A stretch of DNA of 64,000 nucleotides from Minisyncoccia bacterium (lineage in GTDB: Bacteria; Patescibacteriota; Minisyncoccia; Phycocordibacterales; PALSA-1337), in contig JBBQVG010000001.1 of assembly GCA_038211765.1 (NCBI GenBank), positions 1,837-65,836 of the forward strand, in the 5' to 3' direction. This document shows positions 19,977 to 50,169 of this stretch, in pieces. The notes below the pieces were generated by a model that saw only the letters and a list, made by a program, of their open reading frames with translations, ran no database searches and was not told where the DNA came from. The position numbers and the translations under genes were made by a program. The number at the start of each line of letters is the position of its first letter. Positions within the stretch are counted from its first letter, which is position 1.

Positions 19977-20341
19977 GGGGATGATCGGCTTCGACAAGCG
20001 ATCGTTTTCGTCCGTGCGATGCGAGCACCATTAACTCGTAAATCTGATGGAAATCACAAATGCTAAATCAACCGTTTCTCCGTATTTCGGAGCCAAGGAC
20101 TTTGCATTCGCACTAGTTTAACTAGAGCGCGTTCACCCAAGGGGATCCATACCTTGATGTGGATGTCATTACCCGGATGTAGGTATTACGAGACTTCTCA
20201 GCTCGTAGCCGAAACACCGAGATCGCGATTATGTGTTTTGCAATATTTTTCAGCATAATCGTTAAACTACAAATTTTGCTACCATCGTAGAATCGTTCGA
20301 CAAACATCGTTTGAACCTGGGTTCGATTCCCAGCATCTCCA
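19977..20341 (+). ncRNA. ssrA: tmRNA (ssrA), one-piece, immediately downstream of smpB
   Basis: 5' 'GGGGATGATCGGCTTCGACAAGCG' pairs with 3' 'CATCTCC'+A. T-arm 'CTGGG TTCGATT CCCAG' abuts the acceptor. Candidate tag frame from resume GCT at 20062 (AKSTVSPYFGAKDFAFALV*) ends at TAA 20119-20121. CCA not encoded. Confidence 0.65.
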
Positions 20342-20428
20342 CAAATTTGACAGATATGAGTAAACATGCTATCATTTTAGGTAGCAGTTTTACAGCAATC
20401 CAACAACCAAAACGTCCGAAACAGCACA

Positions 20429-27192: not shown

Positions 27193-27266
27193 CCGCCCTT
27201 AGCTCAGTTGGTTAGAGCACAGAGCTTATACCTCTGGGGTCCTTGGTTCGAATCCAAGAGGGCGGA
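27193..27266 (+). tRNA. tRNA-Ile with anticodon UAU (AUA decoder)
   Basis: Manual cloverleaf: acceptor CCGCCCT/AGGGCGG, D-arm GCTC-AGTTGGTTA-GAGC, anticodon stem CAGAG/CTCTG, loop CTTATAC, T-arm CTTGG-TTCGAAT-CCAAG, discriminator A. No CCA encoded. Confidence 0.7.
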
Positions 27267-27321
27267 CATTGACGAGGAGAGCGGTGATAATGTAGCCCCA
27301 CATGCTCACAGTATATGCCCA

Positions 27322-45749: not shown

Positions 45750-45773
45750 AGTGATGATTATAGCTTGTCTTGG

Positions 45774-45880
45774 CCTTCCATAAACCCTCGCTCGACGCTA
45801 TATTTGCTCTGCCCATATATCGTCTTCGCTCGGGTTATATGAAAGTGGCCTTTCATAAACCCTCGCTCGACGCTATAATA
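45774..45880 (+). promoter_or_regulatory. duplicated promoter-like element upstream of pilM (TTCATA-N16-TATAAT/TATATT) x2
   Basis: 'cctt(c/t)cataaaccctcgctcgacgctata' at 45774-45802 and 45849-45877. The second copy has a perfect TATAAT 11 nt before the pilM ATG region. Confidence 0.45.
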
Positions 45881-45889
45881 AACCCTATC

Positions 45890-46996
45890 ATGGCCATTTC
45901 CTCTCTGCTGTCCTCATTTTTCAAAAAAGAAACAAGTGTTCTCGGCGTTGATATCGGCTCATCGGCCATCAAAGTCGTCCAAGTTAGAAAGAAACACGGT
46001 AAGGCCGTGTTGGAAACCTACGGAGAATTGGCGCTCGGGCCTTATGCGGGTATAGAGGTGGGACGTGCCGCAAATCTTCCTCCGGAAAAGATCATCGAAG
46101 CCGTGCGTGATATTCTGCGTGAAGCAAAGACAACCACGACATCATGCGGTGCGGCACTACCTCTGTCTTCGAGTCTTATTACATTTATCAATATCCCGCC
46201 TGTGCCTGAAAAACAGATAAAGGATGTCATCGCCATCGAAGCGCGCAAATATATTCCAGTTCCTTTGAGTGAAGTACTTCTGGACTGGTCCATCATCCCC
46301 AAAGAAGAAAGTTTTGTCACAGATGAGAAAGCAGAGACTGCCCAAAAGCAATCCAACGAAGTCTTGATTGTGGCTATTCATAATGAGTTCATCAGTACAT
46401 ACCAACGCATCATGACCGGTAGTGGTCTCCAGCCGAGCTTCTACGAGATCGAGATTTTCAGCTCCATACGCGCCGTTGTCGACCAAGGTATGGGCACGAC
46501 CATGATCATCGATATGGGTGCACGTGCTACAAAACTATATATCGTCGAGCGAGGGATTCTCCGGGCATCTCATATCATCAATAAAGGAAGTCAGGACATC
46601 ACCCTGGCTTTGTCGAAGGCACTTGCGATCAGCGTGGGTGAAGCGGAGAACCTCAAGCGTGTGCACGGACTAAAGGGCGGAGCAGAATACAAGGAGCTCA
46701 CAGAGATCATCACCGTCAATCTGGATTATGTTTTTTATGAAGCCAACAGCACCCTCCTTGCATACCAAAAGAAATTTGCCAAAAATATAAACAAGGTCAT
46801 TTTGACTGGTGGGGGAGTCCTCCTGAAAGGATTTACAGAATTGGCGAAGATCAGCTTCCAAACCGACGTTATCTACGCCAACCCTTTTTCGAAGCTCGAA
46901 ACCCCAGCATTCCTCGCCCAAGAGTTCGCCCAAGCTGGTCCAGAATTCGCCGTCGCTATCGGGGCGGCATTGCGCCGTCTTTCTGAGGTAGAGTAG
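45890..46996 (+). CDS. pilM: type IV pilus assembly protein PilM (actin-like ATPase fold)
   Basis: 'VLGVDIGSSAIKVVQVRK' is the actin/FtsA-like phosphate-1 motif. ~370 aa. The track ORF start 45770 lies in the repeat, so ATG 45890 is preferred. Confidence 0.8.
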   Translation: MAISSLLSSFFKKETSVLGVDIGSSAIKVVQVRKKHGKAVLETYGELALGPYAGIEVGRAANLPPEKIIEAVRDILREAKTTTTSCGAALPLSSSLITFINIPPVPEKQIKDVIAIEARKYIPVPLSEVLLDWSIIPKEESFVTDEKAETAQKQSNEVLIVAIHNEFISTYQRIMTGSGLQPSFYEIEIFSSIRAVVDQGMGTTMIIDMGARATKLYIVERGILRASHIINKGSQDITLALSKALAISVGEAENLKRVHGLKGGAEYKELTEIITVNLDYVFYEANSTLLAYQKKFAKNINKVILTGGGVLLKGFTELAKISFQTDVIYANPFSKLETPAFLAQEFAQAGPEFAVAIGAALRRLSEVE

Positions 46997-47042
46997 TAAA
47001 ACCTAGCAAAGCAGAATTCCTTGTGGAAGCTGTCATATAAAG

Positions 47043-47750
47043 TTAAATTATTTCGTCCTCAAACCAAGGTTTTACACTAGTACCTTTCTTTGTTGAGTAC
47101 ATATAAGAGATCGGTAGGGTCTTTGGAAAGATTTCATTGAGTTCACTACCATTAAAAGTCAGAAAGATACAGCCTTGATACTTTTCATCTATTTTCTGTC
47201 GCTCTAATTGATTTTGTAAATAATATAGCTTTGCAGCAACAGAGTAATCATTTGAAGAAGTGTAGTGTTTGTGTGCAGAGTTAAGGAGAATTTCAAATAG
47301 ACCTTTTTCAATGTCCACTGATTTAACAAGTGGCATGAGCCGGTCATTATCGTAAGTCACAAGTTCACTCAGATACGTCGTCTTAAATTCATGACTCTTA
47401 GCAAGATTACTTACAGAATCAAAATATATCTTTGTACTCTCTTTGGAATGACCATTCAGTTTCGCATGAGTATCAGTAAGTAAAATCAATAGCTCAGTTC
47501 CAGGTAAGTGTACAGTTCGAATGCGATCAAAAAACTCCTGCAGGAAATTGAATGTTTGCTTTTCAGGCTCACCAGCATTGTTTTTGTTTCCCTTACCCCA
47601 ATAGGTAACGAACTTTATAGGTTTATAATTATCAACTGCGGACTGGACGACTTCCTTCATTTTTTCGTAGTTAAGAGGCTGTTCTCTTTTGAACTTCCAT
47701 GTGTCAAAACTGCTTATTATTTCCTCTGTGAGAGTTTCATTATTTGACAT
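47043..47750 (-). CDS. hypothetical protein co-oriented and overlapping with AsnB-like gene
   Basis: 235 aa, 11-nt overlap with upstream asnB-like stop. AT-rich. No domain recognised. Confidence 0.45.
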   Translation of the reverse strand: MSNNETLTEEIISSFDTWKFKREQPLNYEKMKEVVQSAVDNYKPIKFVTYWGKGNKNNAGEPEKQTFNFLQEFFDRIRTVHLPGTELLILLTDTHAKLNGHSKESTKIYFDSVSNLAKSHEFKTTYLSELVTYDNDRLMPLVKSVDIEKGLFEILLNSAHKHYTSSNDYSVAAKLYYLQNQLERQKIDEKYQGCIFLTFNGSELNEIFPKTLPISYMYSTKKGTSVKPWFEDEII

Positions 47751-49296
47751 AGGTATTGGTCTTATTCACCAGTGTTCTCTCCTGATTGAATAGGGCTTTA
47801 TCATAGCCAAATTGTAGGAAATATTTGAAGTAATAGACTTCTTCCTTCGTCTCCAAATTCCAATCCCCGTATTTTGTTTTATACTCCTCAAGTTCAGTAA
47901 CAGAAACCTCTTTAGCCACAAAATCATAGAATAAGCCACCGATCTTTTGGTTTCCCTTATATCCAGCCCCTTCACTCAAGACCACTTTGTCTCGGTTGTA
48001 TATGTATTCAGGTAGCCGGTCCATCATTGCTTTTCGCAGGATGTATTTTGTGATGACTTTTTCACCAACTTTTTTCACCTTAAAATCACTTGAAATCCGC
48101 AGCACATACTCAACGAGATGCTTATCCAAGAAAGGTTCTCGCACCTCCGTAGTAAATGCCATCGATGTCCTATCAACTCTTTGAAGTTGAGTTCTATGTA
48201 AATCAGAAAGAAACTTAATAATTCTTTCTTCTATTTTTTGACTTGATTCAAGCTGAGTAAATTCTGGATATCCAGCAAATATTTCATCTGATCCTTCACC
48301 ACAGAGGATGATTTTAAACCCTTTTTCTGCAGCTGCCAGTGCAATGTAATGAGACAGCGTAACCTGACGAACCATATTTGGCTCGAAACTTTCACTAGTC
48401 CTAATCGCCCAGGGAATATCCTTTACCAACCCTGCTTCAGTCGGAGGAACTTTTACAACATACTTGATCTTATTTTCTTCGCAGTATTTAATTGCTATCT
48501 TTTTGTCGGAAGATTCATCATTACCTACAATAATTGCAGTTACGTCATTGTGGTATTTTGCAGCAGTAGCAAGGACCGCAGTACTATCAATACCACCGCT
48601 CATGTATACTGCAATCGGTAAGTCGGTCTGGACTCGGATTCTTATCGCGTCATCAAATAGTTTTCGGATCTCTTCAGTAGCTTCATTTTCTAGGATTTCA
48701 TAATTTATCTTGGTTGGGATCTTCCAATATTGCGTCAATTTCCCATCCTTCATGTAGTGAGCTGGAGGGAAAAGTTTTACTTCCTTAACCTCATCAAGTT
48801 GTGACAAGGATTTAATCTCTGACCCAAAATAATAAGTTTCCTCATTTTGAGCCCAATAAAGAGGTTTAACGCCCAATAAGTCACGAGCTGCAAAGAAACT
48901 CTTTTGTTCTTTATCAAATATAAAAAAGGCAAACATGCCTATTAACTTCTGAAGTAAATCTGGACCCCATGCCGCATATCCATTTACAAGCACCTCAGTG
49001 TCTGAATCAGTATTAAATTTGTACCCCTTTTTAATAAGCTCTTCCTGAAGATCTTTATAATTATAGATTTCCCCATTAAAGACAATGGAGTATCTGCCAT
49101 CATTTGAGCTGATTGGTTGTTTTGCGTGTTCCCGATCAACAATAGCAAGCCTATTCATTCCCAGAACACAGGTTTCAATCTCCGCACTTTCATCAAAGTA
49201 TTTCCTTTCACCGCGAGATGAAATAGCCGCCAACATCTTTGTTAGCTCCGCCCTATCCTGCTTGTTCTTTCCTATTATGGCTGCTATTCCACACAT
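47740..49296 (-). CDS. asnB: asparagine synthetase (glutamine-hydrolysing) family amidotransferase
   Basis: N-terminal 'MCGIAAI' (Ntn Cys2) and PP-loop 'SGGIDSTAV'. 518 aa. Confidence 0.85.
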   Translation of the reverse strand: MCGIAAIIGKNKQDRAELTKMLAAISSRGERKYFDESAEIETCVLGMNRLAIVDREHAKQPISSNDGRYSIVFNGEIYNYKDLQEELIKKGYKFNTDSDTEVLVNGYAAWGPDLLQKLIGMFAFFIFDKEQKSFFAARDLLGVKPLYWAQNEETYYFGSEIKSLSQLDEVKEVKLFPPAHYMKDGKLTQYWKIPTKINYEILENEATEEIRKLFDDAIRIRVQTDLPIAVYMSGGIDSTAVLATAAKYHNDVTAIIVGNDESSDKKIAIKYCEENKIKYVVKVPPTEAGLVKDIPWAIRTSESFEPNMVRQVTLSHYIALAAAEKGFKIILCGEGSDEIFAGYPEFTQLESSQKIEERIIKFLSDLHRTQLQRVDRTSMAFTTEVREPFLDKHLVEYVLRISSDFKVKKVGEKVITKYILRKAMMDRLPEYIYNRDKVVLSEGAGYKGNQKIGGLFYDFVAKEVSVTELEEYKTKYGDWNLETKEEVYYFKYFLQFGYDKALFNQERTLVNKTNTYVK

Positions 49297-49503
49297 AAGT
49301 TTATTCGGCCTTTTCTGAAGCAGTGTTAGCCTTACCTTGCGACGAGAAAAAGTATTGAATTAGCAACACTTTACCACTTCTTTGCTCTATAGTCGAGATG
49401 TTTCTGTGCGGATCCTTGCACAAACCTGCTTCTCTTTGTGGACCTCTGTTATACACACCCGCCCCAGCACCTTTCTTTGCTATAATAAGAATGAATCTTC
49501 TTC

Positions 49504-50169
49504 ATGGAAACCAAATTCCAAACATCTTTTATACCCAAGAAACCTCTCGTCCCAATCGGGGGCGCTACTCTCCCGCACAAGCATCATAGTACGAGCTTGT
49601 TTATGACCATCGGAGTGTTTGTTTTTCTTGCATCTCTTGTTGCTGCTGGTGGGGCATATATGTGGAAGAGTATACTGACATCCTCCCAAGACACATACAA
49701 ACAGGACTTAGCTTTGCGTGAACAAAAATTCAACGTTGACGATATCGAAAAGCTCAAGCGAGCAAATGTTCGTATTGACCTTACTTCACGGTTGCTTGCA
49801 AATCACCTTGCCGCATCGCAAATCTTCGATATAGTTTCTCGTTTTACCGTCAGTAATGTTCGCTTCATCAATCTTTCATTATCAAATTCCGCTACCACTC
49901 CTGGCGAGGGAGTGCGACTGGAACTAAAGGGATACGGTAGCAACCTCTCGGCGGTGGCCTTCCAGGCAAAAGTATTTGCACAGCTCGAGCAGTATGGATT
50001 GCGCAAGATAGTAAAAAATCCCATTCTTTCCGATCCTACTACAGATACGAACGGAAAAGAGTCTTTCGGATTTTCGGCTGTTATCGATCCGGCAGCTATA
50101 GGTTATACCCGTTCTGTCCGCGGTGAGTCACCGGCTTCTTCTACGTCAACAACTAATACAAACCCATGA
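49504..50169 (+). CDS. pilN: PilN-like pilus assembly protein (N-terminal TM + coiled coil)
   Basis: TM 'LFMTIGVFVFLASLVAAGGAYMW' then a coiled coil. Position between pilM and pilO. Overlaps the next gene start (ATGA). Confidence 0.55.
   Translation: METKFQTSFIPKKPLVPIGGATLPHKHHSTSLFMTIGVFVFLASLVAAGGAYMWKSILTSSQDTYKQDLALREQKFNVDDIEKLKRANVRIDLTSRLLANHLAASQIFDIVSRFTVSNVRFINLSLSNSATTPGEGVRLELKGYGSNLSAVAFQAKVFAQLEQYGLRKIVKNPILSDPTTDTNGKESFGFSAVIDPAAIGYTRSVRGESPASSTSTTNTNP

Follow-up and report, generated by a model that had tools for sequence, protein, structure and literature searches.

What are an asparagine-synthetase-like gene and an overlapping gene of no Pfam family doing between pilM and pilN, on the strand opposite to a pil operon? 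The question is raised by a stretch of 64,000 nucleotides (nt) from a Minisyncoccia bacterium (GenBank assembly GCA_038211765.1, contig JBBQVG010000001.1, positions 1,837 to 65,836), which as a whole is referred to here as the window. Two overlapping minus-strand open reading frames (ORFs) of 518 and 235 amino acids (aa) lie exactly where the first-pass annotation of this DNA had placed them, and its description of the locus held throughout: an AsnB-family enzyme with a Cys2 nucleophile and a PP-loop, an overlapping 235-aa partner, and an antisense insertion of low guanine–cytosine (GC) content between the two pil genes. Its functional suggestions, namely modification of pilins or surface glycans by a WbpS-like enzyme, or a cluster for a lasso peptide or other ribosomally synthesized and post-translationally modified peptide (RiPP), did not survive the comparisons described below. 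On balance, we favor an explanation in which the cassette is a horizontally acquired, self-contained two-enzyme module that is functionally unconnected with the pilus genes it interrupts. This assessment covers the explanation as a whole, i.e., import, the splitting of a fusion, and action of the AsnB half and its partner on the same metabolite.

The inserted nature of the cassette was established by comparison with relatives. A metagenome scan with the PilM protein of the window yielded 15 related loci with PilM identities of 73–89%. The gene order TyrRS-comF-pilM-pilN-pilO-small ORF-pilB is kept in all 15, pilM and pilN being separated by about 40–250 bp, and neither an AsnB nor a partner gene was found at any of these pil loci (0/15), which answers the question of conservation posed by the first-pass annotation. 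Nucleotide similarity to the relatives ends at ~46999, the end of pilM, and restarts at ~49447–49478, within the conserved promoter region of pilN, which places the foreign segment between these points (Table 1). The conserved GTTATACAC...TATAAT region upstream of the pilN-like gene is still present, and no convincing terminal repeats or target duplication were detected at the insert ends. The insert has a GC content of 38.1% (38.7% in the AsnB gene, 35.5% in the partner gene) versus 46.3 ± 2.8% in the rest of the window, and GC at third codon positions (GC3) is 0.33–0.36 in the two genes versus about 0.4–0.58 in neighboring genes. Because the pil loci of all 15 relatives lack the cassette and its GC and GC3 values are low, we count it as a true insertion into the pil operon, recent and lineage-specific, and its occurrence in this window as incidental.

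Both ORFs have homologs by the hundreds to thousands, with E-values down to 0, and ratios of nonsynonymous to synonymous substitutions (dN/dS) against locus L001, the closest relative with available DNA, are 0.03 for AsnB and 0.06 for the partner; both are therefore genuine genes under strong purifying selection. Similarity to L001 extends into the 87 nt upstream of asnB and is shared with this closest relative only, no conservation being seen with L002. The cassette thus seems to have travelled with a leader or promoter region of its own. A cis-regulatory RNA was considered for this region and rejected, as no Rfam family matched upstream of asnB and conservation of the 87 nt is limited to the closest relative. 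A 51-aa ORF with a GTG start (49301–49456, minus strand) stops 4 nt short of asnB. It overlaps the leader conserved in L001 through its last 25 codons, is without a counterpart in L002, and is probably a non-coding promoter or leader rather than a peptide gene. A phage origin was likewise rejected, the partner being absent from viral contigs and the AsnB half alone of the pair matching a PHROG, as was a role in anti-phage defense, for which PADLOC returned nothing beyond a trivial PP-loop match.

The pair and its fused relatives

The relationship between the two genes became apparent from their homologs. Among the 120 best AsnB homologs, 117 are near full length, and 77 of these measure at least 640 aa, typically 720–758 aa. 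Alignment by blastp divides the fused homologs into an AsnB portion (residues 1–516) and a partner portion (517–747). They derive from bacterial records (Uhrbacteria, Taylorbacteria, Moranbacteria, Falkowbacteria, and “Patescibacteria group”) as well as archaeal ones (Micrarchaeota, Nanoarchaeota, and “uncultured archaeon”), with MCM and NMD3 as archaeal neighbors at one fused locus. The window pair reads as the split form of this ~747-aa AsnB-partner fusion, found in records of the candidate phyla radiation (CPR) and of DPANN archaea. In a crude neighbor-joining tree of AsnB domains, the window clade (P0121–P0124) is nested inside fused clades and short forms are scattered, which makes the fusion look ancestral, with splits or losses having occurred several times. 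An AlphaFold2 model of a fused homolog has a mean predicted local distance difference test (pLDDT) score of 93.1, with lower confidence in the linker only.

The split can be traced to the nucleotide. Fused proteins run from ...VNKTDT directly into QQNDTK..., whereas the AsnB protein of the window ends ...VNKTNTYVK at a stop codon, and MSNNET begins in the +1 frame, equivalent to a frame break of 1 nt. The junction AAA-TAA-T is identical in the window, L001, and L002. An assembly artefact is therefore unlikely, as these are three independent samples. The split pair of L001 is 88% (AsnB) and 76% (partner) identical to that of the window, those of L002–L006 77% and 46%, and a Moranbacteria locus is split at a different junction. 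We propose that the overlapping stop and start keep AsnB and partner co-translated. Ribosomes might slip by +1 on the “hungry stop” AAA-UAA, in the manner of prfB, and so restore the fusion (...YVK-NETL...); plain translational coupling would explain the overlap equally well.

The 518-aa protein begins with MCGI, which puts Cys2 directly after the initial Met, carries the PP-loop SGGIDS and the acidic cluster GEGSDE, and matches GATase_7/GATase_6 and Asn_synthase in Pfam. Among NCBIfam models, it passes TIGR01536 (asn_synth_AEB; 345.7 bits, cut-off 267.1) and stays below the cut-off of the AsnB model (NF006949; PRK09431) with 364.7 bits against 499, residues 1–496 aligning with positions 1–505 of the 554 in the profile. 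Scores are lower for the PEP-CTERM amidotransferase (258 bits, cut-off 816.9), NAGGN amidotransferase (223 bits, cut-off 570.1), lasso cyclase (NF033535; 168.4 bits, cut-off 525), and macrolactam cyclase models (NF033561; 49.5 bits, cut-off 300). E. coli AsnB, with 28.5% identity over residues 1–491, and human ASNS are the nearest solved structures. The Cys nucleophile and the glutamine-binding residues R49, N74, G75, E76, and D98 (E. coli numbering) are aligned and conserved in the window protein, these glutaminase residues being kept by no fewer than 73 of the 77 fused and 39 of the 40 short members of the clade, and SGGxDS, E348, D351, E352, Y357, R387, and K449 are invariant or nearly so across the clade. 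In human ASNS, beta-aspartyl-AMP is bound at its alpha-amino group and its phosphate by E364/D367/E368 and K466 (PMC6748925). A change of K376 to F, considered as a sign of an altered substrate, was discounted, Leu being the residue found there in human ASNS. Judging from these residues, we conclude that the 518-aa protein would be a working glutamine-dependent, adenylate-forming amidotransferase with an aspartate-like site, most likely an asparagine synthetase with one altered residue in the amino-group pocket. The first-pass annotation had held that grouping with housekeeping AsnB, in a genome with no other asnB, would reduce the protein to the biosynthetic enzyme. Part of this stands, as true AsnB is nearest and the catalytic residues are kept; the protein nevertheless falls into a clade of its own, of which fusion to the partner is the defining feature.

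The 235-aa partner of the window is without a match in Pfam and NCBIfam, PF05141 giving no hit even at E ≤ 1. A word-indexed search returned 341 homologs, and an exhaustive hidden Markov model (HMM) search (E ≤ 1e-3) expanded the family to 712 clusters at 50% identity. Over 40 family sequences, 27 columns are invariant, including FNTWxFKREQP, YWGKGxR, TDTHAxLNGH, and KPWF. An AlphaFold model built from the family alignment (pLDDT 95.1, predicted template modeling score (pTM) 0.91) retrieves PIsnA (9dhm/9dh4, E about 1e-9) and PvcA (3e59, E about 1e-8) as top Foldseek matches, followed by TyrRS/TrpRS catalytic domains and a cyclodipeptide synthase (CDPS). Sequence profiles point in the same direction. 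The partner-family profile matches 9dhm with an E-value of 1e-5, 28 of 40 members touch PF05141 weakly or below threshold (best 5.2e-8), and hhalign against five canonical isocyanide synthases (ICS), a set comprising plasmid-borne sequences only, gives a probability of 97.1% (E 7.5e-11). The modeled partner thus appears related to the TyrRS/TrpRS catalytic domain and to CDPS via the PvcA/IsnA fold.

The canonical ICS motifs LPxFPxKSxNxxK, PGA...SDG, RLSIHP, and TPWH do not occur as a set in the partner. The ICS-invariant residues R245 and H249 (R-L-S-I-H-P) and H274 (T-P-W-H), whose catalytic roles are deduced from invariance only, correspond to F196, N200, and F230, and the K-S-x-N-x-x-K loop is 8 residues shorter, while K53, the P-G turn, D93, and P228-W229 are retained. 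Retention of the Lys and Asp elements suggests that the partner still binds an amino acid, and loss of the Arg and His residues suggests that it does not carry out the C–C cleavages of isonitrile formation. It is best placed as a sister family of the isonitrile synthases rather than as a member, and the JGI label “L-tyrosine isonitrile synthase” carried by some of its relatives is probably wrong. From the 27 invariant residues, the low dN/dS of 0.06, the existence of stand-alone copies, and the several fusions described below, we infer that the partner is an enzyme in its own right.

Genomic context and possible function

Neighbors of the pair or fusion differ at every locus and include ribosomal proteins, DnaB, UvrB, toxin–antitoxin genes, an IS605-type TnpB, and a methyltransferase; recurring pil, glycan, or RiPP genes were not seen beside it at the fetched loci. 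At some loci, a divergently oriented gene upstream of the AsnB-partner gene encodes a ~330-aa regulator of the Lrp/AsnC type in tandem form, with two HTH_AsnC/HTH_24 units. The copies at L094, L095, and L105 are orthologous and 34–44% identical to each other, and the window contains no such regulator. This adjacency is suggestive of amino-acid-responsive control.

Stand-alone relatives of the partner (35–42% identity) occur in Hyphomicrobiales and other Alphaproteobacteria, among them Methylobacterium, Bradyrhizobium, Rhodoplanes, and Filomicrobium, with no AsnB nearby. We analyzed 80 such loci (L007, L010, and 78 from L013–L091) within ±8 kb of the partner gene; neighbors in these high-GC loci were identified by targeted blast, naive ORF clustering having been swamped by spurious ORFs. 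At some of them, the partner gene heads an operon with PxpB-like, PxpC-like, and EamA transporter genes; at others, an EamA or TauE-like membrane protein alone follows. Homologs of PxpB and PxpC (37–39% identical to the E. coli proteins) are present in 46 and 45 of the 80 loci, respectively, and PxpA in none (0/80). The operon resembles a variant 5-oxoprolinase system that lacks PxpA. A dCache-GGDEF-EAL gene often comes after it.

Three further fusion architectures, all on short metagenomic contigs, were identified. The exhaustive search revealed partner-PxpB fusions (P0257 and P0260). Proteins of ~1030 aa combine AsnB, an NMT1/THI5-like domain, and the partner (P0370 and P0386), NMT1 being an inserted periplasmic-binding-protein-like domain. 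Finally, ANL enzymes (acyl-CoA-synthetase-like, AMP-binding) carry a C-terminal partner (P0381, P0336, P0317, P0359, and P0344). The partner has hence been joined repeatedly to three unrelated ATP-dependent modules, two of which form acyl-adenylates (AsnB and ANL), the third being PxpBC. The assumed roles are phosphorylation of 5-oxoproline for PxpBC and its decyclisation for PxpA (PMC13274462).

For the favored two-enzyme module, the following sequence of events can be drawn up. Glutamine would be hydrolysed at Cys2 and the ammonia channeled to the PP-loop site, where a carboxylate would be adenylated with ATP and then amidated, with aspartate to asparagine as the most likely conversion. Asparagine synthesis by the AsnB half, with aspartate, glutamine, and ATP as substrates, we consider likely. 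The partner would act before or after this reaction, in two sequential steps on one metabolite: it would prepare the acid substrate of the AsnB half or tailor the resulting amide. In the fusions, strict conservation of the glutaminase residues indicates that the AsnB reaction probably runs to completion, and diversion of the adenylate by the partner appears unlikely, which leaves two steps on one metabolite as the most economical reading. We infer such a coupling with caution, and any specific version of it is tentative. It is also doubtful that the partner represents a third, undescribed functional branch of the TyrRS/cyclodipeptide-synthase/isonitrile-synthase fold, serving ATP-dependent carboxyl-activating modules (AsnB, ANL, and PxpBC), such that the CPR/DPANN fusion would make, in addition to asparagine, a new Asn- or Asp-derived metabolite by novel N–C chemistry. 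If true, candidate products are an isonitrile, a nitrile, or an N-substituted amide, possibly for a symbiont–host relationship.

Several observations weigh against the favored module. Three sites conserved in the E. coli and human enzymes are invariantly changed in the clade (D384 to Q, T321-T322 to N-(M/V), and S346 to C), and D384, equivalent to human D400, is part of the amino-group pocket. In view of these changes and of the missed AsnB equivalog cut-off (364.7 versus 499), the acid substrate may not be plain aspartate. The model of the fused homolog reaches a pTM of 0.73, loss of the R245/H249/H274 equivalents gives no pointer to a replacement chemistry, and Lrp/AsnC regulators are common, their adjacency being suggestive at most. 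Moreover, a purely regulatory, ligand-binding role of the partner is possible.

In that last case, the 518-aa protein would be a plain housekeeping asparagine synthetase and the partner a non-catalytic ligand-binding or regulatory domain, acting for example as an Asn/Asp sensor or as a cap over the synthetase site. This agrees with the intact AsnB residues and AsnB as the best model, with fusion genes standing alone among housekeeping genes, with the Lrp/AsnC-type regulator adjacent at some loci, and with loss of the canonical ICS catalytic residues. It also agrees with two loci at which AsnB persists without a partner. At L123 (8001–10046), an AsnB 80% identical to that of the window ends in the split-type tail ...TNTYV(R/K)-stop, directly followed by a terminator hairpin and then by the tmRNA/smpB region (tmRNA, transfer-messenger RNA), and at L104, AsnB is likewise without partner. 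The partner gene appears to have been lost at L123, and because both loci keep AsnB without it, the AsnB half can work alone. We nevertheless regard a merely regulatory partner as improbable: its 27 invariant residues are mostly polar or aromatic, Alphaproteobacteria have stand-alone copies beside exporters and PxpBC but away from any AsnB, and the partner is fused to two other unrelated ATP-dependent enzymes, all of which is the behavior of an autonomous enzyme.

A true isonitrile or N-formyl amino-acid pathway is less probable again. Here, the partner would turn the alpha-amine of Asp or Asn into an isocyanide via ribulose-5-phosphate and AsnB would amidate the side chain, giving a small metal-binding or toxic metabolite acting against or with the host cell. 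The structural neighbors IsnA and PvcA, the profile homology (E 7.5e-11), and the PF05141 matches in 28 of 40 members speak for such chemistry, and a Q in place of D384 in the amino-group pocket would suit a neutral N-substituent. Canonical ICS genes, too, adjoin efflux pumps, and fungal ICS domains are fused to adenylation domains, as in CrmA. However, the partner has F, N, and F for R245, H249, and H274 and a K-S-x-N-x-x-K loop shortened by 8 residues, the window partner itself lacks any PF05141 match, and no IsnB/PvcB-type dioxygenase was found in the window or at any fetched pair or fusion locus. The E/D/E cluster that binds a charged alpha-amine is furthermore retained in AsnB.

Slightly less probable still is a partner that is the functional analog of PxpA, i.e., a coupling component that would process an ATP-activated amide, lactam, or acyl intermediate of its neighbor (PxpBC, AsnB, or ANL), for instance by opening or repairing cyclised by-products of activated Asp or Glu. 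The idea draws on PxpB and PxpC flanking the partner in 45–46 of 80 alphaproteobacterial loci that lack PxpA altogether, on the partner-PxpB fusions, and on all three fusion partners being ATP-dependent carboxyl- or amide-activating enzymes. This idea, drawn from context only, is countered by the absence of structural resemblance between the partner and PxpA and by the conserved glutaminase domain, which indicates that the AsnB half completes its own amidation; PxpA may also lie elsewhere in those genomes, the view being limited to ±8 kb.

Amidation of pilins or surface glycans (WbpS-like), a RiPP or lasso cyclase, and a tRNA-linked role (Asp-tRNA(Asn) amidation, or CDPS-like use of aminoacyl-tRNA by the partner) are, even taken together, very improbable, considering that the cassette is missing from 15 of 15 related pil loci, that no pil, glycosyltransferase, precursor, or protease genes accompany the pair elsewhere, that the lasso and macrolactam models miss their cut-offs while the AsnB models align along the entire protein with 365 and 346 bits, that the flanking gaps of 46 and about 150 bp leave no room for a precursor and hold no conserved precursor ORF (none had been noticed in the first-pass annotation either), that the partner has neither HIGH nor KMSKS motif nor an anticodon-binding domain, and that stand-alone partners with exporters point to small-molecule metabolism. 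In annotation, the pair should consequently not be read as pilus- or RiPP-related.

Because CPR and DPANN organisms have a minimal metabolism, an architecture that recurs across many of their lineages likely matters for obtaining or transforming amino acids. Enzyme discovery has a well-defined target in the partner family, which is conserved, uncharacterized, confidently predicted in structure, and tied to ATP-dependent carboxyl activation by three independent fusions; the family would extend the small isonitrile-synthase superfamily beyond isonitrile chemistry. Since cultured Methylobacterium, Bradyrhizobium, and Rhodoplanes strains carry the stand-alone partner, genetics is feasible.

The surrounding window

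Coordinates of the cassette, its borders, and comparable features at other loci are compiled in Table 1.

Table 1 Positions of the cassette, its flanking genes, and related features at other loci
Feature	Sequence	Coordinates	Strand	Description
Inserted cassette, whole	window	47000–49446	-	~2.45 kb, low GC; borders from comparison with 15 related pil loci
AsnB-type glutamine-dependent amidotransferase, 518 aa	window	47740–49296	-	predicted; N-terminal-nucleophile (Ntn) glutaminase domain and PP-loop synthetase domain; Pfam GATase_7 and Asn_synthase
Partner, 235 aa	window	47043–47750	-	predicted PvcA/IsnA (isonitrile-synthase) fold, class Ic aminoacyl-tRNA-synthetase-like; uncharacterized family
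Overlap junction, 11 nt, ATGTCAAATAA	window	47740–47750	-	site of the 1-nt frame break that would have split the presumed ancestral fusion
Overlap junction	L001	2462–2472
Overlap junction	L002	3536–3546
5' leader/promoter region of the cassette	window	49297–49383	-	putative; 87 nt upstream of asnB, 76% identity with L001
pilM	window	45770–46996	+	PF11104 PilM_2, 2.9e-32; left border of the insertion, outside the cassette
pilN-like gene	window	49504–50169	+	right border; synteny with the gene after pilM in 15 relatives
Tandem Lrp/AsnC regulator	L094	5984–6967		CPR
Tandem Lrp/AsnC regulator	L095	6903–7895		archaeal (L095/L096)
Tandem Lrp/AsnC regulator	L105	3887–4894		Moranbacteria (L105/L106)

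The pilN-like ORF has no Pfam match and owes its identity to its position; it is 43–59% identical to the gene following pilM in the 15 relatives, and pilO, pilB, pilT, and pilC follow downstream on the plus strand. The longest pilM ORF starts with TTG and contains the peptide AFHKPSLDAI twice near its N-terminus (45770–45900). Because similarity to the PilM proteins of the relatives begins only around residues 18–49, the true start probably lies further downstream.

A second patch of low GC (35–39%) covers 32000–34500 and 36000–37100 and begins just after a tRNA-Ser gene. It contains an NYN-domain ORF (32465–33070), a Kre9/KNH Ig-like ORF (33211–34134), and a DUF4238 ORF (36160–37104, minus strand), and may be another island imported at a tRNA. 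ARAGORN assigns the anticodon ACT to this tRNA-Ser (32166–32253) and TAT to a tRNA-Ile (27193–27267), both uncommon in bacteria, and a tmRNA is located at 19977–20342.

Relation to known systems

The pair couples a known type of amidotransferase, of which the AsnB half forms a new clade, to an apparently undescribed branch of the TyrRS/CDPS/ICS fold. Within an incomplete coverage of the literature, we found no report linking an asparagine synthetase with an ICS/DIT1-type domain or describing the CPR/DPANN fusion.

The AsnB half shares its two-domain layout with E. coli AsnB (PDB 1ct9) and human ASNS (6gq3), aligns with them end to end, and keeps their catalytic residues. It differs from both in that the clade has Q for D384, N-M/V for T321-T322, and C for S346, and from the E. 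coli enzyme in that the window protein lacks about 40 C-terminal residues, in place of which a ~230-aa domain of predicted ICS fold is present, either fused or encoded by the next gene.

With IsnA, PvcA, and DIT1 (PF05141; PDB 3e59, 9dhm, and 9dh4), the partner shares the predicted fold. Unlike them, it is about 80 residues shorter and has an N-terminal F-N-T-W-x-F-K-R-E-Q-P motif of its own, F-L-T-F-N stands for R-L-S-I-H and K-P-W-F for T-P-W-H, and an iron- and 2-oxoglutarate-dependent dioxygenase companion (IsnB/PvcB) is missing from the window and the fetched loci. More distant are the class Ic aminoacyl-tRNA synthetases (TyrRS/TrpRS) and CDPS, with which the partner has no detectable sequence homology, HIGH/KMSKS motifs, or tRNA-binding domain in common, PvcA being clearly closer.

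A parallel to PxpABC exists in Alphaproteobacteria, where the stand-alone partner is accompanied by close PxpB and PxpC homologs and the partner is sometimes found fused to PxpB. Yet the LamB/YcsF protein PxpA is absent from the 80 loci and unrelated to the partner in fold, and the window has no Pxp genes.

An ICS-type domain joined covalently to a domain that uses ATP to form an adenylate and acts on an amino acid is also a feature of the fungal ICS hybrids resembling nonribosomal peptide synthetases, such as CrmA, and the partner family includes ANL fusions as well. In the CrmA type, a canonical ICS domain is N-terminal and is followed by carrier and transferase domains. The partner is instead divergent and C-terminal, and its adenylating module is a PP-loop AsnB or a CoA-ligase-like ANL enzyme with no carrier domain. 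Family context for the fungal hybrids is available in PMC5974471 and PMC10153163.

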